NCBI GenBank assembly: GCA_964445165.1
Contig: CAYUJZ010000001.1
Location: forward strand, 1,591 to 65,590
Direction of reading: 5' to 3'
From: an uncultured Methanosarcinales archaeon
GTDB lineage: Archaea; Nanobdellota; Nanobdellia; Woesearchaeales; JASKKU01
Length of the DNA stretch: 64,000 nt
The position numbers were made by a program, and so were the translations under genes. The notes under the pieces are model-generated. The model searched no databases and was not told the origin of the DNA. It saw nothing but the letters and a program-made list of their open reading frames with translations. Shown piece after piece: positions 6,582 through 28,497 of this stretch; the stretch's first letter is position 1, and every line of letters starts with the position of its first letter.

Positions 6582-6618
6582 ACCACTGAATTCAGCACAT
6601 TTTTTATCTTGCTCCAAA

Positions 6619-10941: not shown

Positions 10942-12663
10942 ATGAATAAGGAGATGCTTTTAGGGCTCGCTTCAGCAAATGTTCTTCTAATCAGGTTTTT
11001 CTTCACACTGCTTTTTCTTTCTTGCATTATCATTATTAAAAAAAAAAGAATTCCTTCAAAGGTTTTAATTATTGCACTTATTGCCTTCTCAATTGCCTTT
11101 GCTGATGCAATGCTTCTGCCAAAAAGAGACCTTATGTACAACGACGACTTCTACTACCAGTCTATGGCTTTATCTATAAAAGAACGCGGGAATTATTTTC
11201 TTTACCACAGGCAATTTGAAAGCGGCCCTTTTCCAAAGTCAATAGGGTACCCATTCATGCTTAGCCTCATTTACTCAACGGGAAACCTTAACCCAAAGCT
11301 CTCAAATTATGCCAATGCTTTCTTTTATGGGCTTTCTTTTGCACTTTTTGCTGTTCTTTTATGGAAAATAAATAAAACCAATGCGGAGGGAAAAAGAGAT
11401 GAAAAAGAAAAGGATAAACGCAAAAAGAAGGCACTTTTAGGCAAAAGCCTGCTTTTCACCATTTCCTTCATAGCAATGCTTTTGCTCATCTGGTCAAACA
11501 TACTCTTTAAAAAGCTTTCCACAACCGGAGAAACGCATGTTTTTTCCGTTTTTGCAATTGCTCTCTTCATTTATCTTTTTGTTAATTATGTTAAAAGAAG
11601 CTTTTCGGCATGGAGCTTTTTAGCTCTTATGGCTTCTGCCTTTCTGGCAATAGTTACAAGGCCCGAGAATGTAATGATAATATTCATTCTATACCTGGCT
11701 GCTTTTTCTCTTGCTCTGATTAACAGAAAAAAAGCTTTTTGGGTTTTTTTTTCGGCTATCCTGCTAAGCATTTTATGCATTCCTAATTTTCTGGTAATTA
11801 GGTCAGAATATATTGACATTCAATGGGGTGAGGGAAGTAATTTTGGATTGGAAAAAATACCCGAGAATGTTAGGTTTTTCTCAGATACTGTTTTTGGCAA
11901 TCAGTGGGAGTCCGGAATAGTTTTTCTGGCAGGATGCGCATACTCTTTGATTTTTTGCTTCTGGTTCCTTGCTTTTAAACTTTTGCCTTATTCAATTAAT
12001 AAGCTTAGGAAAAAATCATTTATGAAACAAGGCATTAATGCGTTTAATTTATTGTCGTTTTTCGTTATGTCGGTTCTTCTTGCTTTTACTCTTGTTATTT
12101 TTGTATCTCATGTTGACTCAAACAGGGCTCCAAGAATCTATCTCACACCAGTTATGCTTTCTTATGTTGTTTTTGGCTTGCTCGCTTTTTCGATTACAAG
12201 AAACTTTAGCAGCAAAAGGGGAAAAAAACACATCATTTACGGGGTTGCTTTTTTATCAATTGTATTGTTAGCACTTTCAAGCTTTTTCTCAGGTGTGAGG
12301 TGGGAAAAGGAGTTCAGGGAGTCAAGCAACCACAGGAAGGACCAACTTGACATGAGCGAACAGATTTACTTCTTTTTTCAGGGCATGAAAGGGGAGTATT
12401 ATGTAGTCACTCAATACCCTGAAGCTATGTTTTTTCTTGGTAAACGAGCCATAAGTGTTGATGCATTTATAGAGGGATACAACGAACTTAAAGGAAAAGA
12501 AATATATGTCTGGCTTAATAACCTATTTGACAATCCGGGATTTGCAAGAGACAAAACGCTGATGTTTTATAATCATATTAAAGAGGATGCTGAAATGATA
12601 ACGGTTCTCGAATATAAGGCCGGGCCTTATGAATCTAAGCTTGAGAAGCTGGAGTTTAATTGA
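10942..12663 (+). CDS. polytopic membrane protein, GT-C-fold (PMT/ArnT-like) glycosyltransferase candidate
   Basis: 573 aa, more than 12 predicted TM helices, acidic motif YNDDFYY in the first loop after TM1, no soluble domain. Confidence 0.45.
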   Translation: MNKEMLLGLASANVLLIRFFFTLLFLSCIIIIKKKRIPSKVLIIALIAFSIAFADAMLLPKRDLMYNDDFYYQSMALSIKERGNYFLYHRQFESGPFPKSIGYPFMLSLIYSTGNLNPKLSNYANAFFYGLSFALFAVLLWKINKTNAEGKRDEKEKDKRKKKALLGKSLLFTISFIAMLLLIWSNILFKKLSTTGETHVFSVFAIALFIYLFVNYVKRSFSAWSFLALMASAFLAIVTRPENVMIIFILYLAAFSLALINRKKAFWVFFSAILLSILCIPNFLVIRSEYIDIQWGEGSNFGLEKIPENVRFFSDTVFGNQWESGIVFLAGCAYSLIFCFWFLAFKLLPYSINKLRKKSFMKQGINAFNLLSFFVMSVLLAFTLVIFVSHVDSNRAPRIYLTPVMLSYVVFGLLAFSITRNFSSKRGKKHIIYGVAFLSIVLLALSSFFSGVRWEKEFRESSNHRKDQLDMSEQIYFFFQGMKGEYYVVTQYPEAMFFLGKRAISVDAFIEGYNELKGKEIYVWLNNLFDNPGFARDKTLMFYNHIKEDAEMITVLEYKAGPYESKLEKLEFN

Positions 12664-14162
12664 CAAAAATGGAGCTAATAGACACGATAATAAGGATGTC
12701 TTACAGAATCAATTTTGAAAGCTTCTATACTATATCGTCTTTCATTGTATTCCTGATAATTGCCTTGGTTGCACTTATTACATTCAAAGGAATAAGGCAA
12801 AGCCTAAAAGGCGGGATAAAAAAGGGAAAAATACGAAAATGGTCTAAAACTGCTATTGAAGTAATTATTGTTGGAGCAGTTGTGACAACATACTTTCTTA
12901 TAATTATGCAGGGAAAGGTGTTTTTTCCATATGATGAGACTGACATCAAGTATTATCACGGTTTCCAGAACATAATTGACCACTCAAGCTTTATGCTTTT
13001 TGGCACAACTGTCGGGCTGGGGTATTTTGCTGTCCCTATAATACTAATGCAAGCTTTCGGGATAAAAGACATGTTTCAGCTTTTCCCCCTGCTCAAGGCT
13101 CTCATGCTGTCCCTGATTTTGATTTTCTCTTATTTAATTTACTTCTTTTTCAGGAAAACGTCTCGGATTAAAGCCGGCTTTGCCTTAGCTGCCTTCCTTT
13201 CTTTTCCTGCGTTCGTAATGTCTGTCAGAGAGCTAAAAGCAATTTATTTTTTCGTTTTTCTCTCAACTTTGGCTTCTTACATGTTAATGTTGAAATGCAA
13301 GGATAAGAATTGCGGGGCAGAGTACCATTTGCTTTTTTTGCTTAATTATGCGCTTGGATCGCTTACAAGGCCAGAATTTCTTTTTTTTAACTTCCCTATT
13401 CTGATAGACTATGGGATAAGCCAATACAAAAATATAAAGGAGGAAGACTCCTGGCATGCAAAAGAGTGGCTGATTTTAGTTGTTTTTTGCCTGGTCTTAA
13501 TTGTCAGCATATTTCCTTTTTCAAGAACGATACAAAGAGTCACTGAACCTGATGAGGGCGGGAATTTTTTAAGGAATTTAAATTACCTTAAGGATTCTTT
13601 TCACAATCCAAACCTCTTTTTTGGGCCTGTTGCTCTATCATTAGTTTTTATTGTCTCGCTTCTTTTTTTCAAGCAAGCATTTTACTATGGCATAATTTAT
13701 CTGATGGTGCTAATGAGGCTCATGAATTCATTCTACTTTGATTCCCAGCTGTTTGGCTTTTATTTCTCAATTGCGTTAATAATACTCTTCCACAGGCTAA
13801 GGAAAAAAAAGGCTTTTTACTTGGCTGCGGCAATAACTATTATATTCAGTTTGAGCATTGTATTCAGCAATCTGGGCACAATCTTTATGGATGATGGCTC
13901 TGAAATCGTTGAATTTTTTTCTGACTATAAAGACAAAAACATGACCTTTTACACGAGATACCCTGGCGTATTTTTTTCGTACCTATTCAGAGGAACTAAT
14001 ATAACGGTTTTTGGAATGGATGAATGGAAGAATTTAAGCAATAATGAGATTCTTTTAGACCACAACTGCAACCCTATGAATATTGGAGGAACCCTGGTTG
14101 AGTTTGAAAAGGAAAGGTATCTAGGGTCTTTTATGCATTACTGCAAGCCAAAAAATAGCTGA
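12660..14162 (+). CDS. polytopic membrane protein, GT-C-like glycosyltransferase candidate
   Basis: 500 aa, many TM helices, PYDETD motif in the first loop, start overlaps the upstream stop. Confidence 0.45.
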   Translation: MTKMELIDTIIRMSYRINFESFYTISSFIVFLIIALVALITFKGIRQSLKGGIKKGKIRKWSKTAIEVIIVGAVVTTYFLIIMQGKVFFPYDETDIKYYHGFQNIIDHSSFMLFGTTVGLGYFAVPIILMQAFGIKDMFQLFPLLKALMLSLILIFSYLIYFFFRKTSRIKAGFALAAFLSFPAFVMSVRELKAIYFFVFLSTLASYMLMLKCKDKNCGAEYHLLFLLNYALGSLTRPEFLFFNFPILIDYGISQYKNIKEEDSWHAKEWLILVVFCLVLIVSIFPFSRTIQRVTEPDEGGNFLRNLNYLKDSFHNPNLFFGPVALSLVFIVSLLFFKQAFYYGIIYLMVLMRLMNSFYFDSQLFGFYFSIALIILFHRLRKKKAFYLAAAITIIFSLSIVFSNLGTIFMDDGSEIVEFFSDYKDKNMTFYTRYPGVFFSYLFRGTNITVFGMDEWKNLSNNEILLDHNCNPMNIGGTLVEFEKERYLGSFMHYCKPKNS

Positions 14163-14179
14163 AAAAAGAGGAAAAATAC

Positions 14180-15271
14180 ATGGAAAAAATCCCTATAGCA
14201 ATGCCGGACATTGACGAGAATGATATTAAGGCTGTTTCCAGTTGCCTTAGGTCTAGACAGATTGCTGCCGGAAAAATAACCGAAGAATTCGAGAAATTGT
14301 TTGCAAAAGAGATTGGCGTAAAGTGCTGCTTGGCTGTGAACAGCGGCACTACTGCCTTGAGAATAGCTCTCAGGTCGCTTAAACTGAGTAAAGGCTCAGA
14401 GGTGATTATTCCTGACATGTCTTTTGCCGCAACCGCCCATGCTGTATCCCTTGAGGGACTTATTCCTATTTTTTGTGACATCAAGCCTGATGGAAACATT
14501 GATGAAAGCTTAATTGAAAAAAGAATCACGCCCAAAACAAAAGCGGTTCTTGTTGTTCACCTGCACGGAATTTGCGCAAAGATTGATATGATATCAGAGA
14601 TTTGCAGGAAAAACGGGCTTTTTCTTGTTGAAGACTGCGCTCAGGCCTTTGGGTCAAATATTAATGAAAACATGGCTGGCTCTTTTGGAGATGTTTCTGC
14701 ATTCAGCTTATATGCTACAAAGAACATTGCAACAGGAGAGGGGGGAGTGGTTTGCTTTAATCATGCTGAAGATGAAGGCAAGGCTCTTAGATGGGTAAAC
14801 AACGGAAGAGAGAATGGAGAGGAGATTCTTTCCTTGGGAGACAATTTAAGGCTAAGCAATATTAATGCTTCACTTGGCATATCCCAGCTAAAGAAGCATA
14901 AAAAGATGCTAAATAAGAGGAAGGTAATTGCTGAGATATACAACAGTGAATTTTCTCGGTTAAACAGCATAATTCTGCCACCTTATTCTGGAAAATACGG
15001 GAATGCCTATCATCATTATAACCTTATCTTCAAGAGAGGAGTGGATTTTAATGAAGCGCTTGAATTTTTTGGCTCTGAAGGAATTTCGATTAAAAGGTAC
15101 TACCCTTATACCCTTTCGGAATGCGCTCCTTTTAGGAGAAAGCCTCTTAAAACTTCTGGCTTTATCTCAAAAAATTCATTTTGCATCCCAATCTTTTCCT
15201 CTATGAAAGAATCTGATGCAAAAAGAGTTGCTAAAGCTGTGAAAGATTTTGTGCGGAGGCGAGAAAAGTGA
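14180..15271 (+). CDS. DegT/DnrJ/EryC1/StrS-family PLP-dependent sugar aminotransferase
   Basis: AVNSGTTALRIAL and SLYATKNIATGEGG (PLP-Lys context) at family-typical spacing. Confidence 0.85.
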   Translation: MEKIPIAMPDIDENDIKAVSSCLRSRQIAAGKITEEFEKLFAKEIGVKCCLAVNSGTTALRIALRSLKLSKGSEVIIPDMSFAATAHAVSLEGLIPIFCDIKPDGNIDESLIEKRITPKTKAVLVVHLHGICAKIDMISEICRKNGLFLVEDCAQAFGSNINENMAGSFGDVSAFSLYATKNIATGEGGVVCFNHAEDEGKALRWVNNGRENGEEILSLGDNLRLSNINASLGISQLKKHKKMLNKRKVIAEIYNSEFSRLNSIILPPYSGKYGNAYHHYNLIFKRGVDFNEALEFFGSEGISIKRYYPYTLSECAPFRRKPLKTSGFISKNSFCIPIFSSMKESDAKRVAKAVKDFVRRREK

Positions 15272-16614: not shown

Positions 16615-16632
16615 CTTTTTTGCCCGCCAATC

Positions 16633-18408
16633 TTATTCTGGGAAAGGCACGGGGTTGTGGTTTTCTATAACATTCAAAACGAAAGCCTCGTTTCTGTAAA
16701 CTTCTGTTTTTTTGTCAAAAGCATCTATAATTTCCTCAAGATTTTCTCTCATTTCAGCAAAATGCCCGTATAACTCAGTTTCATTGCAGAAACTCAGGAA
16801 ATAAAAGCGCTCATAAGAATTTAACCTTTCCTTTAGGTATGATTGCTCTCCCAAATCATGAATCCTAAACAAAACGAAATCTCTCTCTGTCCTAAGAAAG
16901 ATTAGCTCTATATTTGTAATATGCATAAAAACTACTGGCAGATCTTCAGTCATCCTAAGCGCAACATCATCAAAAAAACCAATACTATCAAAATATCTTT
17001 GATTATGCTGGCTAAAACTAAATATTAAACTTAAGATAATGAACACTAAAACGACCATTAAAACTGAACTTGCCTTCCTGAGGCCTCTGTATTTGAATGC
17101 GGGAAAGGATAAAGCAATAGGAATAACAAGAAAATAAAAGAATACATGCAGAAACCTTCCATCAAAGTTAGAAGTTTCAAGGTAAGAGAGAATATTAAGT
17201 ATGCAAAATGAAAATAGTAAGAAAAAGGTTATTTCTCCTAGGGTTGTCTTCTCTTCCTTCCCTGATTTGCCAATTACCTGAAAAACAAGCCGAATCATGA
17301 ATAAAACAAAGAATGCGATAAGAGAATAAGTAACAAAAGGCTTAAAATAAAACAAATAATGCAATAATTCAGGTAACCAGTATGCAAAAAGCCTATCGAG
17401 ATAGCCTGAAAGGGAATAATGGCCTAATACCTGTGTTCGACTTAGGGAGTAAATAAGAATGGCAAGAAAAAAGATAACACCTGAGAGTGCATACAACCTT
17501 TTCTTTTTATGGCTAAAAAGCAAGAATGCCAAAGATGTGGATAAATATAAAGGGAAAAGCGCAAATGCACTAATAGAAACTTCTGTTTGGCCCATAACTC
17601 TTATTTCAGATGTGAGATAGAAAAAAAAGCCAAATAAAAGAAATACTGCCAGAGTTAAAAGAATAACTTTCCTAGTGGGCTTATTTTTCAGATTCAAGTC
17701 AATATTCCTTCGCGAGATGATGTATGCAATAATAACGGGGAGCAACAAGATAGTTTCTACCCGAGTAAGAACTAGAATAGATAGAATAAATGCAAGAAAG
17801 TGAAGGTTCTTCAGCTTAACATAATCAGTAATAAAGATTATAGAGAAAAATATCATTAGGTAAAGATTTTCAGAATAAAAATTAAAAACATAAAAAAGAA
17901 AAAGAGGCATCACAAAAAGAAGAAACGACGCAAATAGAGCTATGTAAGGGCCTTTTCTCCTTGAAACGAAAAGAAAAATAAAAAATGATGAAAGAAGATT
18001 CAGAAAAAAAACAAGGCCCCGCATTCCAAGGTCATAATGCTGCTGAGGAAATATTGTCCTGATAACGGATATAGCAATAGGATAAGTTAATTCATGCTCT
18101 CCTGAGAAGAGCCAGAAAGTGCAATACTCATCAAGTTCCGGAGTTCTAAAGAAGATCCTGTCAAGAATGCATTTTGCTTGGGACTCATAGGTTAATGACT
18201 CGGATGTCATTGACCTGTCGAAGAATGGTAACGAGAAGATAAAGGTCATCAAAGCTATCAGAATTAAAAGAAAGTACCGATTTTTTGAGATAAGTTTCAG
18301 AAATTCATTTTTGCTGTCTGCAAGTATTTTGAAAAAAGAAAAGATAGCGCCAGCAATGAATATAAAATAGCCCGCCAGTATTAAGTACAGTAAAGCCATT
18401 TTTTCCAC
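16633..18408 (-). CDS. polytopic membrane protein, GT-C-like glycosyltransferase candidate
   Basis: 591 aa, more than 12 TM helices, TPELDEY in an early loop. Confidence 0.45.
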   Translation of the reverse strand: MEKMALLYLILAGYFIFIAGAIFSFFKILADSKNEFLKLISKNRYFLLILIALMTFIFSLPFFDRSMTSESLTYESQAKCILDRIFFRTPELDEYCTFWLFSGEHELTYPIAISVIRTIFPQQHYDLGMRGLVFFLNLLSSFFIFLFVSRRKGPYIALFASFLLFVMPLFLFYVFNFYSENLYLMIFFSIIFITDYVKLKNLHFLAFILSILVLTRVETILLLPVIIAYIISRRNIDLNLKNKPTRKVILLTLAVFLLFGFFFYLTSEIRVMGQTEVSISAFALFPLYLSTSLAFLLFSHKKKRLYALSGVIFFLAILIYSLSRTQVLGHYSLSGYLDRLFAYWLPELLHYLFYFKPFVTYSLIAFFVLFMIRLVFQVIGKSGKEEKTTLGEITFFLLFSFCILNILSYLETSNFDGRFLHVFFYFLVIPIALSFPAFKYRGLRKASSVLMVVLVFIILSLIFSFSQHNQRYFDSIGFFDDVALRMTEDLPVVFMHITNIELIFLRTERDFVLFRIHDLGEQSYLKERLNSYERFYFLSFCNETELYGHFAEMRENLEEIIDAFDKKTEVYRNEAFVLNVIENHNPVPFPE

Positions 18409-18433
18409 TTAATAAAAAGATAACGCGCCTTTA

Positions 18434-19879
18434 TTAGTAATGAACAATATCAAATCCATAAACATGATAATAGGTTATAAGGTACTTAAAATCCATGCCT
18501 AATGCAAGCCCTCTTAATACATACCTAAAAAAGTTAATGAGATATTTAAGGTTTTGTTTTCTGAGAATTACTCCTATTCTTCTTGGGAGAGTCTGGCTGT
18601 ATGCCTTTGCCTGAAACATCTCAACATGCCGAGATGACAAGCCAGGGTAGTCTATCACTGCATCAAAGCTTATGTTGTTTGCTGTTTTAGATTTCCTTAG
18701 GTTAATCTTTCCGCCTTCCTTTATAACCAGTTCTTTGGATTCGTCAGTGAAAGGCTTGAAAACAAAAAACACGCTCCTGTCGCTTTTAATCTCTTTTGCC
18801 AGGCTTAATGTCTGGCGGAGTGTTGCCTTTGACTCTCCTGGGGCGCCAAGGATAAAGTATGCAGTTGTGCGGATTCCGTACTTTTTTGTGAGCCTGAACA
18901 CTTCTCTTACTTTTTGGGTTGAAAGCTGCTTGTTCATGATAAGGTTTCGGATTTTCTCGTTTCCTGACTCAACACCAAGCCTCAATATTTCGCACCCCGA
19001 ATCAGACAACAGCCTTATTTTCTCTTCATCAAGGTGATCAACTCTTGAGAACATTGAATATTTCTGCTTTTTTGTGTCTGCTGCTTTCTTATACTCTTTA
19101 CAAAACTCCTTCAGCCATTCTCTGTCCATTGTAGGGATCTGGTCAAAAAGCTGTATCAGCTTAAGGCCTTTATTCTGGTACTTATTCCACTGCCAGGCAA
19201 GCTCTTCTGCCAGCCTTTTTGGTGACATTGACCTGAAGTACCTGCCCGGGATTGCCTTCTTTATCCCGCAGGACTCGCAAAAAGTGCAATTGTATGTGCA
19301 GCCTCTTGTCCCAATCTGGTAAAGCATTCCGAGGAAATAGAAGTATTTGTCCAGGTCTTTCCATAGGCTCCAGTCCAAATAAGGCAGTGAATCAAGGTCT
19401 GAAAAGAAGTGACCAGGGTTTCTGGTTTCCTTGCCTTTTGCCTTAATCCAGACTCCGCTAATCCTGGCCAATTCATCGGGAGAGTTCAGGGAATCGAGGA
19501 TTTTGCAGATGGTGTCATCTGCATCACCTACTACAAGAACATCGCAGTAGCTGAGATTAAAGAGCTCCTCAGGATGCACTGATGCATGGTAGCCTCCGTA
19601 AAGGACTTTTGTTTTTGGCGAGATTCTTTTTACTTCTTTGCTTATTTCTTTTATAAACTGCAGGTAAAGCGAGTTAACTGAAAACCCTATTGCATCTGGC
19701 CTGTGCCTGGCAATATGCTCTCTCAAAAGCCTTCTCCATTGCTTTCTTCTGAAGGTAAAGTCAAGAATGGCTGCCTTGTGTGTGCCTTTTTTATTTACAA
19801 TTGTAGCAAGGGTAGTTATCGCTATATCTAGTGCGCTAAAATCACCGCCCAGAACCGGATTCACAAAAGTTATCTTCAT
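18434..19879 (-). CDS. class-B (B12-binding) radical SAM enzyme
   Basis: N-terminal B12-binding-like domain with YGGYHASVHPEE (GGxHxS/T), then GCTYNCTFC. Confidence 0.8.
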   Translation of the reverse strand: MKITFVNPVLGGDFSALDIAITTLATIVNKKGTHKAAILDFTFRRKQWRRLLREHIARHRPDAIGFSVNSLYLQFIKEISKEVKRISPKTKVLYGGYHASVHPEELFNLSYCDVLVVGDADDTICKILDSLNSPDELARISGVWIKAKGKETRNPGHFFSDLDSLPYLDWSLWKDLDKYFYFLGMLYQIGTRGCTYNCTFCESCGIKKAIPGRYFRSMSPKRLAEELAWQWNKYQNKGLKLIQLFDQIPTMDREWLKEFCKEYKKAADTKKQKYSMFSRVDHLDEEKIRLLSDSGCEILRLGVESGNEKIRNLIMNKQLSTQKVREVFRLTKKYGIRTTAYFILGAPGESKATLRQTLSLAKEIKSDRSVFFVFKPFTDESKELVIKEGGKINLRKSKTANNISFDAVIDYPGLSSRHVEMFQAKAYSQTLPRRIGVILRKQNLKYLINFFRYVLRGLALGMDFKYLITYYHVYGFDIVHY

Positions 19880-21243
19880 TCTAAAAGCCTTTTGAGCTTG
19901 TAAAAAAAGGTTTTTCTTTTTAAGGTTTGCCTTATGGATGTGGAAATCCTTTTTGGATGGAGATAGAAAGCCATAAAGGCATAGGTTTTTAGTAGCCTGA
20001 GAAGGGGTCGGGGAATGCCTGAAAGAGAGTCTTTTGAGCTTGTATAATAGCTTGAGAACGAACTATTCTTGCTTGCACTTCCTAAATATGTTCCTGGAAG
20101 CGCTGTGAGAACGCTGAAAGTTGCAAAATCCAGGCCTAAATTAGAGATTTTATTGATTTCTCTTACAGTTTCCCTTATTCCCTTGTTAGGAAAGCCAATC
20201 ATAAAAAAGCCAAGAGTTTTTATGCCAGCTTTGTTTAGGACCCGAATTGACTCTCTAACTTCTTTATGAGGAAGTACTTTTTTCAGCAGTTCGTTCCTAT
20301 TTTTTTCATCTAATGTTTCAATCCCCAGCCTTACTTCAACACATCCTGCCTTCTTCATAAGACTGGCTAATTCTGGTTTTACCAGGTCAGCCCTTGTATT
20401 GCATATCCAAGTGAATGAGATTCTTTGGGCTTTTTTAAGCTTAATAAGAGAATTGCAGAAATCAATTACATGTTCCTCATTCACAGTGAAGGAATCATCA
20501 TGAAGCATAAAGGAGTTTATATTGTGGTGTTTTTTCAGGAATTTCAGCTCTGAAAGTATAAAACTTATTTTTTTATGTTTTAATTTCTTTCCAAAAATGT
20601 TTTCCACTGTGGGCTGGCAGAATTTGCATTGGAAAGGGCATGAGCGTGAGGATGAGAAGCTCACTCCTCTTCGTTTTTTCAGGTAATCTAGGTACGGCCA
20701 GTGCCTAATGTAATCTTCAAGGTTTGGGATTATGCCCCAGTCTATCCTTGGGATTTCAAGGTTTGGAAAAAACTCTCTTTTTGTTTTGAGGATTTTCCTG
20801 TTTTTCCTAAAGCAAAGATTGGGAAGCTGCTCAAGCCTGCGATTCTGAAAAAGGGCTGAAATAGAGCCTGAATCTGCAAAGAGTTCAATTATGCTCTTTA
20901 ATGTTAACTCTCCCTCGCCCAAAACCGCAATGTCCGCGATGGTGAGGGATTTTTCTGGCTGTATTGTTGGGCCTGGGCCCCCTATTATTCTTAAAGCACT
21001 GATTTTTGAGAAAAAATGCCTGTTTTTGTTTAGATGGTATTCCATAGAAAAACTATTTGCAGAGAAAGCTACGATCTGGAACTTTTTAGAGAGAATCTCT
21101 TTGGAGAGTCTGTCAAAGTACCAAAAAGAAAAATCCTGCTCTTTCTTAAGGTAAGAGATTAGTTCAAGCAAGCCAGCGTTCACATGGCCTGTTTTTAAAC
21201 CCTGGTTCAGATCAACAAAGGCTATTCTAGGCTTTTGCCGCAT
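19876..21243 (-). CDS. class-B (B12-binding) radical SAM enzyme
   Basis: IIGGPGPT motif, then SCPFQCKFC; its stop overlaps the start of the upstream gene. Confidence 0.8.
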   Translation of the reverse strand: MRQKPRIAFVDLNQGLKTGHVNAGLLELISYLKKEQDFSFWYFDRLSKEILSKKFQIVAFSANSFSMEYHLNKNRHFFSKISALRIIGGPGPTIQPEKSLTIADIAVLGEGELTLKSIIELFADSGSISALFQNRRLEQLPNLCFRKNRKILKTKREFFPNLEIPRIDWGIIPNLEDYIRHWPYLDYLKKRRGVSFSSSRSCPFQCKFCQPTVENIFGKKLKHKKISFILSELKFLKKHHNINSFMLHDDSFTVNEEHVIDFCNSLIKLKKAQRISFTWICNTRADLVKPELASLMKKAGCVEVRLGIETLDEKNRNELLKKVLPHKEVRESIRVLNKAGIKTLGFFMIGFPNKGIRETVREINKISNLGLDFATFSVLTALPGTYLGSASKNSSFSSYYTSSKDSLSGIPRPLLRLLKTYAFMAFYLHPKRISTSIRQTLKRKTFFYKLKRLLE

Positions 21244-21534
21244 AAAACAGCAAGTATAAAGGGGTTTTTATTTATTTTGATTTTTCTGAGCTAAAAAAGA
21301 CATTCGGAATTAACCAAAGCAAATGCCTGAAACACAGCTAACATTATTAATCTAACAAAGGCTTGAGCTCGCCATCGCCATAAACTTCTTTATATGTGAT
21401 TGCTATTCCGGGACAGGAATCCTTGTAAATGCAGGGCTTGCATTTCTCGGTTTTTATGTGCATTTTGTCATCTTCTCCTGAGCCATTGATAAAGTAGGGG
21501 TTGTATTTCATCAGCCCAGGGAATATGCAGAAGG
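20829..21534. repeat. copy 1 of a ~706 bp segmental duplication (5' end of the B12-rSAM gene + intergenic spacer + 3' end of the short rSAM gene)
   Basis: Near-identical to 22433-23138 at a constant offset of 1604 bp. The antisense ORFs 20891-21154 and 22495-22758 encode identical peptides. Confidence 0.9.
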
Positions 21535-22228
21535 GAAAAGAGCCCGCACCTTCGGTGAGACCAAAAGGAACATCCTTCTTTGCAAAGAGCCTGAAAGCAC
21601 TTTCGATAAAGCCTGCATGAGAACTCAGCCTAAAAGAAACATGCTTGAATTTGCTGGCAGGTGAGTTTATCCTAGCCAAGGCAAAACAAAACTGGTTGAC
21701 GGAAAGTCCTGGAAAATTTTTTCTTACAAAAAAGGGAATCTTGTAAAAGTGAGCAAGGTTCTGCTTCATTATCACAATTAACATGGTTATAGGAACTTTA
21801 TGCTTCTCAAGGTTTTTCAGCGCGAGAAGCGCCTGCTGGTAGCAGTCTTTTTGGGCTATCATATTGTATGCTTCTTTCTGGTGAGAATTAAATGTAAGGA
21901 AAACGGACTGCAGGCCTAGCCCAACGAGTTTTCTGCAGTATTCCTCATCACTGAATTTAAGGCTGTTTGTCTCAACTGAAAACCTAATGCCTTTATCATG
22001 AGCAAACTCGCAAACTTTGATAAATTCTGGAAGCTGAGTTGGCTCGCCTCCGCCTAAAAAGAATAATTCTCTCAAACCGGGATTCTCTTCAATACCCTTT
22101 TTAATCTCCAGAATAATCTCTTCATAGGTTTTCACATGGCCATTAAACTCCTTTAGGTACTGGTTTCTCTCGCAGTAAATGCAATCTATCTCGCACGCCT
22201 GCTCAAAGTTTATGGATAATCTGCCCAT
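21347..22228 (-). CDS. short radical SAM enzyme, twitch-like C-terminus (family member 2)
   Basis: CEIDCIYC, GGGEPT, C-terminal CKPCIYKDSCPG. Confidence 0.8.
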   Translation of the reverse strand: MGRLSINFEQACEIDCIYCERNQYLKEFNGHVKTYEEIILEIKKGIEENPGLRELFFLGGGEPTQLPEFIKVCEFAHDKGIRFSVETNSLKFSDEEYCRKLVGLGLQSVFLTFNSHQKEAYNMIAQKDCYQQALLALKNLEKHKVPITMLIVIMKQNLAHFYKIPFFVRKNFPGLSVNQFCFALARINSPASKFKHVSFRLSSHAGFIESAFRLFAKKDVPFGLTEGAGSFPFCIFPGLMKYNPYFINGSGEDDKMHIKTEKCKPCIYKDSCPGIAITYKEVYGDGELKPLLD

Positions 22229-22340
22229 GAAATCACTATTGTTAGTCTTGCTTTATTATTTATAAAGCCTTTGGATTAAAAACAGTTTATTAATGGAAAG
22301 ATATAAAACATAAACCTTACTTCACAGAAAGATGCCAAAC

Positions 22341-22847
22341 CTATTGCTCACAAACTACTGCAATCGGTCGTGCCCTTACTGCTTTGCGAAGCAGAAGGTT
22401 GACCTTGAGAAGACAGAGGGGCTTGAGGGCGAGCTCAAGCCTTCGATTTTGAAAAAGGGCTGAAATAGAGCCTGAATCTGCAAAGAGTTCAATTATGCTC
22501 TTTAATGTTAACTCTCCCTCGCCCAAAACCGCAATGTCCGCGATGGTGAGGGATTTTTCTGGCTGTATTGTTGGGCCTGGGCCCCCTATTATTCTTAAAG
22601 CACTGATTTTTGAGAAAAAATGCCTGTTTTTGTTTAGATGGTATTCCATAGAAAAACTATTTGCAGAGAAAGCTACGATCTGGAACTTTTTAGAGAGAAT
22701 CTCTTTGGAGAGTCTGTCAAAGTACCAAAAAGAAAAATCCTGCTCTTTCTTAAGGTAAGAGATTAGTTCAAGCAAGCCAGCGTTCACATGGCCTGTTTTT
22801 AAACCCTGGTTCAGATCAACAAAGGCTATTCTAGGCTTTTGCCGCAT
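22341..22847 (-). pseudogene. truncated duplicate of the N-terminal 138 aa of the B12-rSAM gene at 19876-21243
   Basis: The N-terminal 138 aa (codons inside duplication copy 2) are identical to the 19876-21243 product, then it diverges into 30 unrelated residues and stops. Confidence 0.75.
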
Positions 22848-23138
22848 AAAACAGCAAGTATAAAGGGGTTTTTATTTATTTTGATTTTTCTGAGCTAAAA
22901 AAGACATTCGGAATTAACCAAAGCAAATGCCTGAAACACAGCTAACATTATTAATCTAACAAAGGCTTGAGCTCGCCATCGCCATAAACTTCTTTATATG
23001 TGATTGCTATTCCGGGACAGGAATCCTTGTAAATGCAGGGCTTGCATTTCTCGGTTTTTATGTGCATTTTGTCATCTTCTCCTGAGCCATTGATAAAGTA
23101 AGGGTTGTATTTCATCAGCCTAGGGAATATGCAGAAAA
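22433..23138. repeat. copy 2 of the ~706 bp segmental duplication; also carries a 3' fragment (about 60 codons) of the short rSAM gene
   Basis: A handful of mismatches relative to 20829-21534, e.g. gtagggg/gtaaggg. Confidence 0.9.
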
Positions 23139-23289
23139 GGCTATGCCCGCGAGAATTATCCCGTTGTTAACTAGGCTAAAAGAACTGACACTGCCTCTTT
23201 AATCATCCAGAAAAAAAGCAATCCTCTTTTTAACTTTAGGGAGCATTTCAATCATTAAGTTGTTGAGGATTCTTAAACATTTCCCTTTT

Positions 23290-24855
23290 CTAAATGCCTA
23301 TTATCTTAAATCGGGTGTTAAAAAAGCCTCTTTTTTGGGCTTTTTCAAGCACTTTCTGGTTCTCTTTATACCCTTCCTGGAACAAAGCCAGCTCAACCAC
23401 AAAAGGGTCCAAACAGCCAAACATCTGTCTTGCCGAGGGGTCATAAACAAAACTTAGCCTGAACTTTGGCGAAACAAACGAAAGCAGGTCCAGAAAAAGC
23501 TCATCCAGGTCAATCCCTGGCTTATTGGCAAACTCATCAAAAACCTCCTTAAAGGGGTTAGCCTTAACAAGATGGTCTAAGGTATAAAGAAATCTGGGTG
23601 AGCCCTGAATAATTGAAAGGTTTATTGCCACAAAGGAGCTTTTTAAGCCAGAATTAAAGAACATGTCCTTAACAGCCCTATTAAATGGCCTGTAAAAGTG
23701 CTCTTTCTTATTCGAAAAATCAAAAACAAGCTTAGGATAATCGCGCGTAATGCATGCCCGGGTATCCTTTGAGAATTCGCTCTCATCCGCAAGAAAGAAT
23801 ATCTTTTTATTGTTAAAAAACCTCTTATTTCCCCCGAATTGATTAACCAGCTTAAGCACAGAGGAATAGGTATCTTTGGGGTTAACATTAACAAGAAAGC
23901 CGTCATCCACAAAATTGCTCTTTTCTTTGATTCTCACTGAAGCAGCAAGAGGGTCGCTAAATACCGGGTTTAGCTCTTTTACATCATAAACATTCAGGTA
24001 GCTTTGCTTTACCCCGGGGCATAATGAGGTAAAGAAGCAATTTTCACAAATCTCGGGGTTTTTGACATACTCAAACTCACCGTAAGACTGCTCTCTATCA
24101 AGAAACTTCGTCTCATAATACTCTACTCCAGACGCCCTGAGAGCCTCAGAAGAGTAATACTCGAAATCTTTAAGGTAGCAAAGAGGCACCCTTTCTATCC
24201 TAAGGGTTGTCTCATGTCTCTCAGCTTCCTTTGCGGCATTATACAAGTAAGGCTCTGCAAGGGAATACCTGGGAACAACATTCTTTCTTATGGACTTCAT
24301 AATTTCCGGGTCATTTGAAGCAGGATCAACAAAATTCATTGTCCAGGTGTTTATTTTTGAGTGCTTTGAAGCATCTTTTATAATTTGTGGCAGAACCATA
24401 TAATTCTTTTCAATAATGGTTGTGTTCATGTTAACCTCAAAGCCGTGCTTGTGTGCAAAAGCCATGTTTTGGAATACTGTGGGAAGCTCAATCTCATCAG
24501 CACCGTTTATCTCCATCTCGGCTTCAGCATCGTAATGATGTATAGAAAAGACAAACTTATCAACATACCCTTTAAGCTTAAGAATAAGCTCTTCAGTAAG
24601 CTTTGTGCCATTAGTTATCATTCTTACCTGGGCTTTTGGGGCCTTTGCTCTGAGCATCTGAGCAAGCTCAACAATTTCAGGGTGCATAGCTGGCTCCCCA
24701 CCAGTAAGCACGAACATGTCTGCACCCTTTGAAATAAACTCATCAACCTTCTTCTCAAAAAGCTCTTTTGAGATATAATCTTCTGTCTTTTCTACTGAGC
24801 AGAAAATGCACTTGTGATTACAGTCAAGGGTAACAACAATATAGCCATCCATCAC
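23290..24855 (-). CDS. radical SAM enzyme of the short-family type with a ~200 aa C-terminal extension (family member 3)
   Basis: CNHKCIFC at residues 12-19, TGGEPA, CENCFFTSLCPG near residue 300. Confidence 0.8.
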   Translation of the reverse strand: MMDGYIVVTLDCNHKCIFCSVEKTEDYISKELFEKKVDEFISKGADMFVLTGGEPAMHPEIVELAQMLRAKAPKAQVRMITNGTKLTEELILKLKGYVDKFVFSIHHYDAEAEMEINGADEIELPTVFQNMAFAHKHGFEVNMNTTIIEKNYMVLPQIIKDASKHSKINTWTMNFVDPASNDPEIMKSIRKNVVPRYSLAEPYLYNAAKEAERHETTLRIERVPLCYLKDFEYYSSEALRASGVEYYETKFLDREQSYGEFEYVKNPEICENCFFTSLCPGVKQSYLNVYDVKELNPVFSDPLAASVRIKEKSNFVDDGFLVNVNPKDTYSSVLKLVNQFGGNKRFFNNKKIFFLADESEFSKDTRACITRDYPKLVFDFSNKKEHFYRPFNRAVKDMFFNSGLKSSFVAINLSIIQGSPRFLYTLDHLVKANPFKEVFDEFANKPGIDLDELFLDLLSFVSPKFRLSFVYDPSARQMFGCLDPFVVELALFQEGYKENQKVLEKAQKRGFFNTRFKIIGI

Positions 24856-25715
24856 TCCTCGCCTCCTTCCTTAAGTGGGCTGAGTGCATGGCCCGGCTCA
24901 ATCCTGAACTCCTTAAAATATCTTTCATAAAAACCCGCACATTTTTCATTAAAACAGCACGTGCTGCAGGATTCTGCTTTTATCCTGGGCACAATGCCAA
25001 CAGGATTTTTAACTAACGCCTTGCCAAGCTGGCCTTCAGCCAGAAAGCAGAAGGGAATGTTTCTTAACTCCAGAGCCATTCCTGTCTTGCTGGCACTCTC
25101 AATTATTTCCGTTAAAGCATCCTGCAGTATTAAATGATGCGGCATAAGCATAAAAAAGTTATCTTTTCCCAAGCCTGCAGGCTCAAAAAGCATGATTTTC
25201 CATTTAGATGCCTTAAGCCTCTTAAGCAAAAAAGGCATGCTTTTCAGGTTGGAATCATTGCATTTCGTCAGCACAGTGCTCACTTTGGTATCAAAGCCGG
25301 CAGAGGCAAGGTCTAAAAGCCCCTTCACAGACTGAATCCATGAATCCTCTGTACGAGTAAGGAAGTCGTGGATGTCCCTTCTCGAGGCATGCAGGGAAAC
25401 ATTGAACACAAGCTTTTTCTGAAAAGGCTTAAACTCCTTCAAGAAGGCAGGCACTGCAAGCATCCTACCGTTTGTATTAACCTCTATCATTTCAAAGAGA
25501 GAAAAAGCCTTCTTCACCAAAATCGGCAAGCCTTTGTACAGAGTTGGCTCCCTTGCAGAAATAACTAGCCTTTGCCCCTTTGCCAGGCCCTCAGCATCCA
25601 AGGCCTCCTGAATTTGCTTTATCTCGATTGACGGGTTTTTGCAAAACCAGCAATTATTGTTGCAGGCCTCAGAAACCTGCAATTTCAAGCATTCGGAGTG
25701 CATGGCTAAAGGCAA
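24852..25715 (-). CDS. short radical SAM enzyme, twitch-like C-terminus (family member 4)
   Basis: CNNNCWFC, LHASRRDIHDFLTR, C-terminal CSTCCFNEKC; overlaps the upstream gene. Confidence 0.8.
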   Translation of the reverse strand: MPLAMHSECLKLQVSEACNNNCWFCKNPSIEIKQIQEALDAEGLAKGQRLVISAREPTLYKGLPILVKKAFSLFEMIEVNTNGRMLAVPAFLKEFKPFQKKLVFNVSLHASRRDIHDFLTRTEDSWIQSVKGLLDLASAGFDTKVSTVLTKCNDSNLKSMPFLLKRLKASKWKIMLFEPAGLGKDNFFMLMPHHLILQDALTEIIESASKTGMALELRNIPFCFLAEGQLGKALVKNPVGIVPRIKAESCSTCCFNEKCAGFYERYFKEFRIEPGHALSPLKEGGEE

Positions 25716-25782
25716 AAAACAGGATTTATAAGCTTTTTGTTAGGTTTACCGGGGTTTCTCAAAGAAGGCTGCTTCTTTCCGA

Positions 25783-27372
25783 TTAGCCAGGAATTCTAAG
25801 GATTATGAACTCCGGGCTTTCATTATAAACAAGCTCAAAGGAGATGTTAAGGCTAGCCAGCTCATCTCTAACATCAAAATCCGCCCTCTCTGCAAACACA
25901 ATCAGGGTTTCCCCAGCTTCAGGCCTGTAATCTTCAAAAGAAATAGTATGGTCAAACCGTTTTATACATCTTTCATCAGAATAGAAAGCCATTAGATTAT
26001 CAGAAAGCATATCGGAAAACGGGATATTATAAAGAGTGAATCTTGCTGAACCAATATCAGCCACGCTCTCTAGGTAAGAGCAGTTTGCAGCCTTGCTAAT
26101 AAAATCCAGGCCATGGCTTTTTTGCGTACTTACATGCCCATAAATCGAAGGGTATGCATAAAAGCCGAAAAACAAGCTTGCTCCTGCCAAAAATACCAAA
26201 AGTGAAATGAATGCCATCTTTATCAAGGATTTTCTTTTGATAAGCTCAATCGAGCCTGATTCAAAAAAGCATGCGAGCAGAACAAAAAAGAAGAACAAAA
26301 GATAGGAAAAAAAATATTTCTGATTTACAAAAGTGGATGTTTCAAAAGATGAAAACAGAATAAGGAAAAAGAAGGGAAGCAGTGCCCACCATTTCTTAAA
26401 ATAAAACACATAAAAAGCTGTGAAGACAGAAAAACCAAGAAAGATAAAAAAAGACGGAAAATACGACAGCAAGCTCTCACTGACATTCATAAAGAAATAA
26501 TAAAGAGAGAAGCCGCGATTCACATTAAAGAACAGAACGTGATAGACAAATGGGGCAGCCAAAATAAAGAAAGCAGACAGGGCAACTGCAGAAAAAGCCT
26601 TATTCTTTTTAAGAAATTTATACGAGAAAACAAAAGGAATAAGAAAAAAAATCGCTCCGTGTTCAAACTTGATATATGCCATAGCAAGAAGAATTAGAAG
26701 AAAAAGCGAGACAAGAAAATAGCGTTTAGGCTTAGGCATAAAAAGCTTTCTATTTCCTTCGAGGCTGCAAAAAACAGGCACCAGCGCCACGATCAGGAAA
26801 AGAGAGAAAAATTCCGCAACTGAATATAGCGAACCATACAATGTTATTGGATTAAAGAAAATAAAGCACAATAATGCAAAAGAAGCAAGCCTGCTCAATT
26901 TTGTAGTCTTTAAGAGAAAGTAAAGCAAAATCCCGGCAGAAACAAAAACCAGGGGATTTAACAGGCTGATTTTTCTGGCGAAGCCAGAAAAAAGAGAAAA
27001 AAGGTACAGCACAAAAGAGTAACCCATAGGGTGAGATGGGTGAACAAAAGGGAGCAGAATCATTTTTTCAGAGAAGGGAATCTCAGGGTCCCGCATTATA
27101 TCAACATGATTCAGATATGTCCAAACTTGGGCGTCATGCCCAAAAAACGGCTCGTGCCTGAAAGAGAAAGCAGAATACAAAAAAACAAAGGCAATAATGA
27201 AAGCTACCAAGAAAAATGCGTCTTTCCAGCCAAGCTTAATTCCACTAAGGTGCTTTAAAAAAAAATAAAGCAAAAAACAGAAAAGCAAAGAGAATATAAT
27301 TATTACAAAAGGATACTCGAGCCTGCCCAATGCTGATAAGCCCGGTTCAAGAAAAGACAGGAACATAGGCAC
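25783..27372 (-). CDS. polytopic membrane protein, GT-C-like glycosyltransferase candidate
   Basis: 529 aa, more than 12 TM helices, FFGHDAQ in the first loop. Confidence 0.45.
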   Translation of the reverse strand: MPMFLSFLEPGLSALGRLEYPFVIIIFSLLFCFLLYFFLKHLSGIKLGWKDAFFLVAFIIAFVFLYSAFSFRHEPFFGHDAQVWTYLNHVDIMRDPEIPFSEKMILLPFVHPSHPMGYSFVLYLFSLFSGFARKISLLNPLVFVSAGILLYFLLKTTKLSRLASFALLCFIFFNPITLYGSLYSVAEFFSLFLIVALVPVFCSLEGNRKLFMPKPKRYFLVSLFLLILLAMAYIKFEHGAIFFLIPFVFSYKFLKKNKAFSAVALSAFFILAAPFVYHVLFFNVNRGFSLYYFFMNVSESLLSYFPSFFIFLGFSVFTAFYVFYFKKWWALLPFFFLILFSSFETSTFVNQKYFFSYLLFFFFVLLACFFESGSIELIKRKSLIKMAFISLLVFLAGASLFFGFYAYPSIYGHVSTQKSHGLDFISKAANCSYLESVADIGSARFTLYNIPFSDMLSDNLMAFYSDERCIKRFDHTISFEDYRPEAGETLIVFAERADFDVRDELASLNISFELVYNESPEFIILRIPG

Positions 27373-27413
27373 AAGTAAACCGGTTTTATTATAAATTTTT
27401 CTTTTTAATAAAA

Positions 27414-28409
27414 TTACTTAGATACGCCAGGATTTACCTTTGAGAAAGCTATGTTTTTCTTAACCCTGTTATAAAGGTCTTCTGAAAGTGGGTTAAAGTG
27501 ATAATCTTTATTATTCAGCAAATGCTCTCTCAGAATACCACCGCAAATACCATCTTTTTTCAGAAAGCACTTTTCACATTGCCAAAGATATTCCTGATTC
27601 CTGTAGTCTTTTACAATATCCTTTATTCTTTTGTTAATCTCATCATCTGAAAGGTTGTAAAGGTAGAAAACATTAAAAAATCTTATCGAATTAAACCCAA
27701 GAAGATCTTCTTCAGAGAAAATGCACAGGGGAACATATTCGATTCTTATATCTTCAGCATCTAACCTGCTAATCTTAAGGACGGCCCTTCTGATATCAGA
27801 AAAAGAAACCAAAAAATCCTGAAACCTTATGTTCTTATTATCGTTATGAAGATAAGGCATTGTGAGCCGCCAGGGATATATCCCAAACTCTTTCCTGCAG
27901 AAAACAAACATATCATAAAAGTTCTCGATGTTCTGCTTAAGAAAAACAGAAGTCAGCCTAATTTCAATGCCCGAATCCAGCTCAAGAAGATTCTTAATTC
28001 CCTTGACAACCTGATTAAAGGCGCCCGGATTTCCAACTGCAGCATCGTGGTATTTTGCTTCTGAGCCATAAATAGGTATAAAAACCCTCGAGATGCCGGT
28101 CTTAGCAAACCTGCTGGCAAAACTCTTGTCAGCAAGCCTGTTTCCCGGGTCAAGAAGACTTATATCATCAAAACTTTTAGATAACCAGGAAAGAAATTCT
28201 ATGATTTTAGAGTATTTCAAAGGCTCAGAGCCAGAAACATCAATCCTTTTAAATCCGTTTTTTCTGAAGTAAAGCGCATCTTTGAGAAGCTTCTTCTCTT
28301 CTTCAAGGCCTAGGTCGTCGTTATGTAAACTCTTGTCCGGCTTACAAAACACGCAGTTATTAGAGCAACGCGGATTGATGAGAATGCTCCCAAACTTGTC
28401 TTCTTTCAT
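27414..28409 (-). CDS. short radical SAM enzyme, twitch-like C-terminus (family member 5)
   Basis: CSNNCVFC, SGSEPL, C-terminal CEKCFLKKDGIC. Confidence 0.8.
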   Translation of the reverse strand: MKEDKFGSILINPRCSNNCVFCKPDKSLHNDDLGLEEEKKLLKDALYFRKNGFKRIDVSGSEPLKYSKIIEFLSWLSKSFDDISLLDPGNRLADKSFASRFAKTGISRVFIPIYGSEAKYHDAAVGNPGAFNQVVKGIKNLLELDSGIEIRLTSVFLKQNIENFYDMFVFCRKEFGIYPWRLTMPYLHNDNKNIRFQDFLVSFSDIRRAVLKISRLDAEDIRIEYVPLCIFSEEDLLGFNSIRFFNVFYLYNLSDDEINKRIKDIVKDYRNQEYLWQCEKCFLKKDGICGGILREHLLNNKDYHFNPLSEDLYNRVKKNIAFSKVNPGVSK

Positions 28410-28497
28410 AAAAAAAGAAAAAAGTCTTTTCGTTTAAAAATATTTGCCTTGCCCTTAAATAGGCAATATTTTTAAATCCGGCAACCTCACTATTTAT

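Follow-up and report, generated by a model that had tools for sequence, protein, structure and literature searches.

Four very divergent candidate GT-C glycosyltransferases in a radical-SAM gene island of a DPANN-type archaeon

In the three-component extracytoplasmic glycosylation systems, which include GtrA/GtrB/GtrC, CsbB/GtcA/YfhO, PgfS/PgfM and the GT136 systems, a GT2 enzyme synthesizes a polyprenyl-phosphate-linked sugar, and a GT-C transferase then acts on the outside (PMC11127046, PMC8035078). In archaeal N-glycosylation, AglS of Haloferax volcanii is a Dol-P-mannose mannosyltransferase at the outer face, with AglD as the Dol-P-Man synthase and AglR as the flippase (PMC3871713). Four membrane proteins, M1 to M4, encoded in a 64,000-nucleotide stretch of archaeal DNA (the whole of which is called the window; Table 1), can be compared with these systems and with the PMT_2/ArnT-type enzymes (GT83/GT39-like), such as ArnT of C. 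metallidurans (PDB 5f15) and of E. coli. Judged from their sequences, it is reasonably probable that M1–M4 are very divergent, paralogue-like GT-C glycosyltransferases, nearest to PMT_2/ArnT/PMT-type enzymes, with a presumed role in sugar transfer.

The four proteins resemble the PMT_2/ArnT type in their ~12–13 TM helices, in an acidic-aromatic motif that opens the first outside loop (PDETRY in E. coli ArnT), in a C-terminal outside domain, and in the link of M3 to a true PMT_2 protein, P0009. The gene context is also similar, with a DegT aminotransferase corresponding to ArnB in the window and a GT2 corresponding to ArnC in a relative's locus. Conversely, M1–M4 carry an extra TM ahead of TM1, none passes the PMT_2 threshold, and comparison of their profiles with E. 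coli ArnT was not significant (E 0.14), a low-power comparison given that even P0009 reached only 0.094. Furthermore, the window lacks equivalents of ArnC, ArnA, ArnD, ArnE and ArnF, and M1–M4 are archaeal, so that lipid A is excluded as their acceptor. AglS, likewise an archaeal membrane enzyme adding one dolichyl-phosphate-borne sugar to a surface glycan, provides a functional model by description rather than by sequence; however, it is a single enzyme, whereas four paralogue-like ones occur here, with neither an AglD-like GT2 nor an AglR-like flippase in the window.

The three-component systems find their parallel in the syntenic locus of an SpSt-1178 relative (L001), where an ArnC/PgfS-like GT2 with C-terminal TMs shares the locus with M1, M2 and DegT. 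Yet the window itself has no such GT2, a flippase was identified in neither locus, and the location within a radical-SAM island is without parallel in the described systems. Finally, the C-terminal domains of M1–M4 are far shorter than those of AglB/STT3/PglB (GT66; 95–125 aa versus >250 aa), and no STT3 Pfam domain was matched. AglB/STT3 identity was rejected because the WWDxG motif is absent; as originally predicted, there is no WWDYG domain, and WWD[YWFN]G is missing from all six frames of the window.

The four ORFs of 500–590 aa named in the original prediction are all present at the positions it gave, and all are real genes kept in independent assemblies, although gene callers on independent contigs chose a later ATG at 12669 for M2 (497 aa) and starts at 18399 for M3 (588 aa) and 27366 for M4 (527 aa). 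M4 has HxsC-like radical-SAM genes as neighbours on either side, and the gene order around it is identical in three independent contigs. In public records M1–M4 are labelled just "hypothetical protein", and curated HMM libraries miss them. The organism that carries them is a Woesearchaeota-like, DPANN-type archaeon.

Table 1. Features of the locus, with coordinates in the window.
Feature	Coordinates	Strand	Description and basis
DUF362 + 2x[4Fe-4S] ferredoxin-domain protein	9227..10897	+	Pfam DUF362 2.8e-47 + Fer4; directly upstream of M1
M1	10942..12663	+	573 aa; candidate GT-C; ~12 TM helices + C-terminal alpha/beta domain
M2	12660..14162	+	ORF, 500 aa; candidate GT-C
DegT/DnrJ/EryC1-family PLP sugar aminotransferase (ArnB/PseC-like)	14180..15271	+	Pfam DegT_DnrJ_EryC1 E 1.2e-87
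Radical-SAM protein, 448 aa	15268..16614	+	Pfam Radical_SAM 1e-14; best NCBIfam HpnJ, far under threshold
M3	16633..18408	-	591 aa; best-supported GT-C candidate
B12-binding radical-SAM enzyme, 481 aa	18434..19879	-	Pfam B12-binding 1e-15, Radical_SAM 3e-21; directly upstream of M3
Other island radical-SAM genes around M4	19876..29439		Pfam Radical_SAM for each
B12-rSAM	19876-21243		within island 19876..29439
Further radical-SAM genes, HxsC-like	21347-22228, 23290-24855, 24852-25715, 27414-28409		around M4
Truncated duplicate	22341-22847		repeat within island
M4	25783..27372	-	ORF, 529 aa; candidate GT-C
Radical-SAM gene, HxsC-like	28498-29439		around M4

M1–M4 are near-orphans with 0–4 detectable relatives each. 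Homologue searches, word-indexed for M1, M2 and M4 and exhaustive with phmmer for M3, yielded 1–5 proteins each, so that deep alignments are unattainable. Nothing besides M4 itself was found for M4, while M3 gave five hits among 1.84 billion representatives, including P0009 at an E-value of 3.8e-4; this is a genuine PMT_2 protein (E 6.3e-13) that also matches STT3 at 1e-4. Two relatives of M2 keep its motif, one at 40% identity (L001:5232-6731) and one at 28% (L012:1778-3283, tblastn 1e-29), and in the latter locus M2-like and M3-like genes are adjacent. A genome-collection scan with the rSAM448 anchor and a metagenome scan with the M3 family each gave one locus, and two viral scans gave no match.

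Pairwise BLAST revealed no similarity among M1–M4, none of which matched Pfam or NCBIfam above threshold. When Pfam, NCBIfam and PADLOC scans of M1–M4 and their relatives were extended down to an E-value of 10, two sub-threshold GT-C matches emerged and nothing more. M3 has PMT_2 (PF13231) as its sole Pfam match (E 0.0017; 19.0 bits against a gathering threshold of 26.1 bits), and the L001 relative of M2 matches Glyco_transf_22 (E 0.0014; 18.3 bits against 23.8 bits). The HMM searches proposed as a check on the original prediction thus favour GT-C, weakly, for M3 and this relative, but return no PMT_2 match even at E 10 for M1, M2 and M4, and no Pfam match of any kind for M1. The PMT and MIR domains, scanned for as a test of GT39, were not matched in M1–M4, and the PDB, queried by sequence and by profile with M3, the M3, M1 and M2 families, M4 and P0009, yielded no relevant match. 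Transporter or Wzy/O-antigen ligase identity was rejected, there being no Wzy_C or transporter Pfam match and the fold-search results speaking against it.

Hydrophobicity analysis places ~12 helices in each protein, and M1–M4 share one pattern of hydrophobicity and loop charge. An extra N-terminal TM is followed by a short, K/R-rich cytoplasmic loop, the helix equivalent to GT-C TM1, and then the first outside loop (EL1), which spans ~65 aa in M1, M3 and M4 and ~27 aa in M2. EL1 opens with the acidic-aromatic motif [DE][DE]xxY...A..I and has a Y-P element 30–40 residues on; thereafter come ~10 more TM helices, with conserved P...(S)E and T-R/K-x-E motifs, and an alpha/beta C-terminal domain on the outside. 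The helices of the M1 model agree, giving 12 TMs and six K/R-rich inside loops, which put EL1 and the C-terminal domain outside. All four proteins therefore have the 8–13 or more TM helices and the long first extracytoplasmic loop expected of GT-C enzymes, and with EL1 and a soluble C-terminal domain they are not "almost entirely transmembrane", as had been supposed.

The acidic strings on which the original prediction relied (YNDDFYY at residue 66, PYDETD at 90, PELDEY at 90 and FGHDAQ at 77 in M1 to M4, respectively) are all present, but in all four proteins the acidic motif follows the second hydrophobic segment rather than the first. In M1, the motif is D68-D69..Y72, with D68/D69 kept in relatives; in M2, it is Y-D/E-E-T-D..K-Y (D92, E93, D95), with E93/D95 kept. 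For M3, the choice of PELDEY has to be replaced: it varies among the four aligned family members, whose invariant acid is E70 in S-E-S-x-T-Y-E-x-Q-A (SESLTYESQA in M3), accompanied by invariant Y74, Q77, A78, H105, E106, Y109, P168, E180, T215, R216 and E218. M4, a single sequence with no relative for comparison, has D79..Y85, H114..Y118, E184 and K232/E234; the acid of EL1 is conserved in the M1, M2 and M3 families and present as D79 in M4. The EL1 acids and T-R-x-E are invariant within those three families even at 25–48% identity, as would be expected of a catalytic or donor-phosphate site.

A lone D/E in a loop could arise by chance. Four motifs in colinear order, combined with profile matches of ~1e-4 where no shuffled control scored better than 0.02, go beyond that expectation. 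In hhalign comparisons, the M3 family matched P0009 at an E-value of 1.5e-4 over 170 columns, M4 matched the M3 family plus P0009 at 1.7e-4 (193 colinear columns, M3 37-236 aligned with M4 45-258), and the M2 family matched the profile of M3, P0009 and M4 at 1.3e-4, also colinearly. All 14 block-shuffles of M4 scored at least 0.072 and those of M2 at least 0.034, and the reversed, block-shuffled and unrelated membrane protein controls for M4 and M2 ranged over 0.03–0.45; block-shuffles are not valid controls for sequences that a profile already contains, and such cases were discarded. The M3-family HMM by itself did not score M1, M2 or M4 above reversed controls.

These controls bear directly on the possibility that no GT-C protein is present at all, and that M1–M4 are transporters, Wzy/WaaL-type polymerases or ligases, or other membrane proteins whose GT-C signals are compositional noise between Phe-rich TM proteins. 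Their composition is indeed extreme, with 50–55% AILMFVWC and 11–17% Phe, every family match is sub-threshold, and the models of M1 and M3 both have low pLDDT. Yet neither the reversed, the block-shuffled nor the unrelated-TM controls ever came near the real scores, the match of M3 to P0009 is significant against the full 1.84 billion sequences, and the Pfam matches of a Wzy polymerase or transporter are missing, which together make such noise very unlikely. GT-C enzymes, rather than transporters or Wzy proteins, are therefore the best-supported reading, on moderate evidence that differs in strength from protein to protein: M3 links to PMT_2, and profile comparison connects M4 and M2 with M3, although none reaches any curated GT-C family threshold.

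The AF2 model of M1 (pLDDT 53.9, pTM 0.56) was built from an alignment that took in P0009 and the M3 family, and in Foldseek its best 18 matches were all GT-C, with TM-scores of 0.32–0.41. This outcome was partly built in, the alignment of this low-confidence model having contained PMT_2-like rows. The M3 model (pLDDT 46.7) is unusable, and although its only alignments of more than 200 residues were to AglB, Pmt4 and PglB, they come from a poor model; Pmt2 and Pmt4 were matched at fold level only. The structural comparison suggested originally thus gives GT-C matches for M1 in a low-confidence model, with no usable counterpart for M3. In general, assigning a fold to orphan membrane proteins remains uncertain when alignments are shallow.

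It could accordingly be asked whether the set is mixed, with M3 and probably M4 and M2 being GT-C proteins and M1 an unrelated polytopic protein whose model is an alignment artefact. As a single sequence, M1 matched the merged profile at 0.006, non-colinearly and against a best shuffle of 0.023; it is also invisible to the M3-family HMM and to Pfam, and the composition of its model alignment invites the same suspicion. However, the M1 family gave an E-value of 6.3e-5 with the merged profile, whereas its reversed version gave 0.012 and shuffles 0.06–0.44, and M1 carries the four motifs in the common order and spacing. In addition, pTM climbed to 0.56 when M1 served as query, above the value for M3 with its own family, and M1 and M2 form a conserved adjacent pair, with C-terminal domains that align with each other. 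A mixed set is thus unlikely, and M1 is retained among the GT-C candidates.

The DegT aminotransferase that the original prediction placed in the locus is solidly identified. Its NCBIfam matches (PseC, LegC, WecE, DesI and ArnB) all fall under the equivalog cut-offs, and it is 28% identical to E. coli ArnB (E 6e-40). The gene for the 448-aa radical-SAM protein and the DegT gene share 4 bases at the DegT stop, and the pair is kept in the SpSt-1178 relative; a 62% identical ortholog adjoins DegT in L001 and L005. The DUF362/ferredoxin gene upstream of M1 occupies the same position in L001–L003, and in three metagenomic loci (L006, L015, L016) orthologs of the B12-radical-SAM enzyme upstream of M3 (48–56% identity) immediately precede M3-like genes.

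The dominant context of the locus, which the original prediction passed over, is radical-SAM chemistry. The eleven radical-SAM genes that accompany M1–M4 include a genuine HxsB, six HxsC-like paralogues and three B12-type enzymes; the best NCBIfam matches of those around M4 are to HxsC and HxsC4, under cut-off, and HxsD-like proteins are also present, whereas no HxsA-type ORF with His-Xaa-Ser repeats turned up when looked for. No GT2 lipid-sugar synthase was found in the window by tblastn with the relative's GT2s or by Pfam scans of flanking genes, which equally showed no flippase of the GtrA, MATE or Wzx type, and the window holds no nucleotide-sugar genes. Neither the GT2 nor the flippase co-encoded in three-component glycosylation is thus found here, the GT2 occurring in L001 only.

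This context raises the question of whether M1–M4 adopt the GT-C fold without being transferases, serving instead as scaffolds or lipid-substrate-binding subunits (compare PIG-U/GAB1 of the GPI transamidase) that tether the island's soluble radical-SAM enzymes to the membrane or present lipid-linked or exported substrates to them. The surrounding radical-SAM genes and the missing GT2 and flippase would suit such a role, as would the kept adjacency of the B12-radical-SAM and M3-like genes, in which the enzyme is 55% identical and its fast-diverging membrane partner 27%. Against it stand the invariant EL1 acids and T-R-x-E of the M1, M2 and M3 families, and the ArnC/PgfS-type lipid-sugar synthase that adjoins M1, M2 and DegT in the relative's locus. 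A purely non-catalytic role is consequently judged quite unlikely, and sugar transfer by M1–M4 is preferred.

If M1–M4 are transferases, their EL1 carboxylates would act on a dolichyl- or polyprenyl-phosphate-linked sugar at the outer membrane face, and pass it to an acceptor such as a glycolipid, an elongating glycan, or a protein of the cell surface or S-layer. In parallel with the route from ArnB to ArnC to ArnT, a modified amino sugar might be supplied by DegT together with the radical-SAM protein translationally coupled to it. Loading of the lipid carrier would fall to an ArnC/PgfS-like GT2, encoded at the same locus in the SpSt-1178 relative and presumably elsewhere in the genome studied here. 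Tailoring of the lipid-linked sugar, or of the acceptor, that M3 handles is probably the task of the B12-radical-SAM enzyme encoded upstream of M3-like genes. The four proteins may work one after another, as originally proposed, side by side on separate acceptors, or assembled into complexes.

A more far-reaching proposal, and a doubtful one, is that M1–M4 and the eleven radical-SAM enzymes form a single undescribed archaeal envelope-modification pathway. The radical-SAM enzymes would tailor an exported protein, or amino sugars on a lipid carrier, for example by C-methylation, HpnJ-like ring contraction or DesII-like deamination, and GT-C-fold partners would install or present the products at the surface. 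The conserved B12-radical-SAM/M3 pair suggests that each such partner may have its own radical-SAM enzyme. In a DPANN symbiont, the pathway could serve host attachment or virus exclusion, surface glycans being the likely interface of such symbionts with hosts and viruses.

M1–M4 would represent new, very divergent GT-C variants with a putative function and, if the assignment is correct, four new GT-C sequence families. That a B12-radical-SAM enzyme stays paired with a GT-C-like membrane protein suggests undescribed chemistry on lipid-linked sugars or exported substrates. The island takes up ~27 kb of a small DPANN-type genome.

The four large membrane-protein genes M1–M4 recur as near-identical copies, with their neighbours unchanged, on independent contigs from ENA, JGI, Logan and NCBI, which marks them as genuine genes of a single organism. 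On those contigs, the ATG starts favoured by gene callers lie three codons further inward for M2 and M3 and two for M4. The DegT aminotransferase that the original prediction had placed beside them is unambiguous. Coordinates are collected in the table.

Genes of the M1–M4 locus and of the surrounding radical-SAM island
Feature	Coordinates	Strand	Length	Remarks
HxsD-like	3735-4331			
HxsD-like	4306-4824			
HxsB radical-SAM maturase, bona fide	5154-6581			NCBIfam 426 bits, cut-off 370
Small HxsC-like radical-SAM paralogues (six)	6619, 21347, 23290, 24852, 27414, 28498			within 3735-7581 and 21347-29439
M1	10942-12663	+	573 aa	ORF
M2	12660-14162	+	500 aa	ORF
DegT	14180-15271	+		Pfam E 1.2e-87; 28% identity to E. 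coli ArnB
Radical-SAM gene	15268-16614	+	448 aa	
M3	16633-18408	-	591 aa	ORF
B12-binding radical-SAM gene	18434-19879	-		
M4	25783-27372	-	529 aa	ORF

Relatives of these proteins are scarce. In a word-indexed search of 5.8 billion clusters, M1 matched itself and one protein at 48% identity, while M2 and M4 each matched nothing beyond themselves; for M3, phmmer run exhaustively against 1.84 billion representatives returned five proteins. Context look-ups added an M2 relative at 28% identity (contig L012) and further M3-like genes, and scanning collections of genomes, metagenomes and viruses yielded no further relatives. All public names for M1–M4 are "hypothetical protein", and the sole named relative comes from a Candidatus Woesearchaeota MAG.

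None of the four proteins scores high enough for membership in any curated family tested (PMT_2, PMT, STT3, GT22 and Wzy_C). Sub-threshold matches were obtained for M3 with Pfam PMT_2 (E 0.0017, 19 bits, cut-off 26.1), and Glyco_transf_22 was matched by the M2 relative in L001, the locus of Woesearchaeota SpSt-1178 (E 0.0014). Furthermore, M3 has P0009 as its fifth library match (E 3.8e-4 library-wide); this protein truly belongs to PMT_2 (E 6.3e-13) and matches STT3 as well (1e-4). Profile-profile comparison linked the M3 family to P0009 (1.5e-4, 170 columns), these two to M4 (1.7e-4 over 193 colinear columns, M3 37-236 to M4 45-258), the enlarged profile to the M2 family (1.3e-4), and the merged profile including M2 to the M1 family (6.3e-5). 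Controls scored 0.012-0.45; they comprised reversed sequences, shuffles in 25-residue blocks, and five window proteins, membrane or other, with no relation to these families. The single M1 sequence scored 0.006 in a non-colinear alignment, the best shuffle reaching 0.023, and M1 is the weak link of the assignment. As an independent test, E. coli ArnT gave E 0.14 against the profile, a comparison of little power since P0009 itself reached only 0.094 against ArnT; the best, non-significant alignment sets the acidic motif of the profile on PDETRY of ArnT.

Foldseek with an AlphaFold model of M1 (ten-row superfamily alignment; pLDDT 53.9, pTM 0.56) returned GT-C structures as its top 18 matches, with probabilities of 0.97-1.0 and TM-scores of only 0.32-0.41; because P0009 and the M3 family were in the alignment, the homology hypothesis is partly built into this outcome. 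Neither fold-search list contained Wzy/WaaL or SEDS structures, and transporters and pumps were few, low in rank and poor in score.

The acidic motifs originally quoted lie where they had been placed, and WWDxG is absent throughout the window. M1–M4 are not, as first described, almost entirely transmembrane: besides roughly 12 hydrophobic helices, each has a long first hydrophilic loop and a C-terminal soluble part of 95-125 aa, which is alpha/beta in both AlphaFold models. Nor does the motif follow TM1: in all four proteins it comes after the second helix, because an extra N-terminal hydrophobic helix and a short K/R-rich loop precede it. In the M1 model, the helices show a positive-inside pattern with six basic loops on one side, which would place the motif loop and C-terminal domain outside.

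PELDEY, proposed as the M3 motif, is not conserved in a four-sequence family alignment, where the invariant positions include E70, Y74, Q77 and A78 (SESLTYESQA), H105-E106-L107-x-Y109, P168, E180 and T215-R216-x-E218. D68/D69 of M1 are kept in the relative at 48% identity, and E93/D95 of M2 in those at 40% and 28%. When all families are aligned, four motifs keep one order and similar distances: acidic-aromatic, Y-P, P...(S)E and T-R/K-x-E.

M3 is very probably a GT-C protein; M2 and M4 are each likely to be, M1 slightly less so, and we lean, more cautiously still, towards all four being GT-C proteins together. In their proposed working they most resemble PMT_2/ArnT-type enzymes and are likened to archaeal AglS (PMC3871713), but differ in the extra N-terminal helix, their extreme mutual divergence and their embedding among radical-SAM genes. 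We class them as new families within the known GT-C type. GT-C enzymes are to be expected on archaeal surfaces, but it is unusual, and open to testing, that a single DPANN island holds four orphan families as well as a conserved radical-SAM/GT-C-like gene pair.

This pair, the B12-radical-SAM gene and M3 (16633-19879), is conserved in metagenome contigs L006, L015 and L016, where an ortholog of the former, at 48-56% identity, immediately precedes an M3-like gene (only about 27%) and a second M3-like gene comes next, the membrane partner being duplicated in tandem. In L012, an M3-like gene adjoins the M2-like gene.

The block of DUF362/ferredoxin, M1, M2, DegT and 448-aa radical-SAM genes is syntenic in L001, which has two GT2 genes that the window lacks: one of 254 aa between M2 and DegT (L001:6733-7497), and one of 333 aa with C-terminal TM helices (L001:9943-10944), which follows the radical-SAM gene where the window has M3. 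The latter aligns full-length with PgfS (1e-35) and ArnC (5e-20), shares 24% identity with E. coli ArnC across 288 residues, and is an ArnC/PgfS-like polyprenyl-phosphate sugar synthase. Such enzymes charge polyprenyl phosphate with the sugar that GT-C enzymes then use. The mechanism proposed rests mainly on the parallel with ArnB, ArnC and ArnT; the window contains no GT2, flippase or nucleotide-sugar genes. HpnJ, implicated in cyclitol-ether formation from hopanoid-linked glucosamine, is among the best NCBIfam matches of the radical-SAM proteins, all far below threshold, and would by analogy serve as an earlier case of radical-SAM enzymes acting on lipid-linked amino sugars. The product of the DUF362/ferredoxin gene (9227-10897), which always immediately precedes M1 in the two organisms, joins a DUF362 domain to a 2x[4Fe-4S] ferredoxin domain, has an N-terminal region rich in cysteine, and may donate electrons to the radical-SAM enzymes.

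The surrounding island (~2.4-29.4 kb) also holds three B12-class radical-SAM genes, and each of its six HxsC-like paralogues ends in CxxCxxxxxC. No His-Xaa-Ser repeat (HxsA) ORF occurs in any window frame. The bacterial HXS system is an antiphage defence whose exported effector is matured by HxsB and HxsC (PMC13128918), and the Hxs and Hxs-like genes of the island resemble an enlarged archaeal form of it that lacks HxsA; that M1–M4 function within this module is unlikely. The G+C content is low (about 0.38 at 2001-30000 vs 0.44 at 30001-64000), which is compatible with horizontal acquisition or gene composition bias relative to the downstream housekeeping region, where an archaeal ribosomal-protein operon begins directly after the island (Pfam labels). 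Further downstream, a 1289-aa ORF (44923-48792, -) has no Pfam match at E <= 0.001.

Two adjacent ORFs without family assignment (7596-8729, with TM segments, and 8726-9217), both conserved in L001, appear by eye to share a similar domain in translation (for example RPL/ARKVYF/FLSxExLxLFSxxx...RLCF/KLCFxExC), and the radical-SAM enzymes may act on their products as exported or membrane substrates. A 572-bp direct repeat (20829-21400 and 22433-23004, 99.65% identity) duplicates the 5' part of the B12-radical-SAM gene at 19876-21243 and its upstream region, leaving a truncated 168-aa ORF (22341-22847); two independent contigs, L004 and L008, terminate within this repeat.
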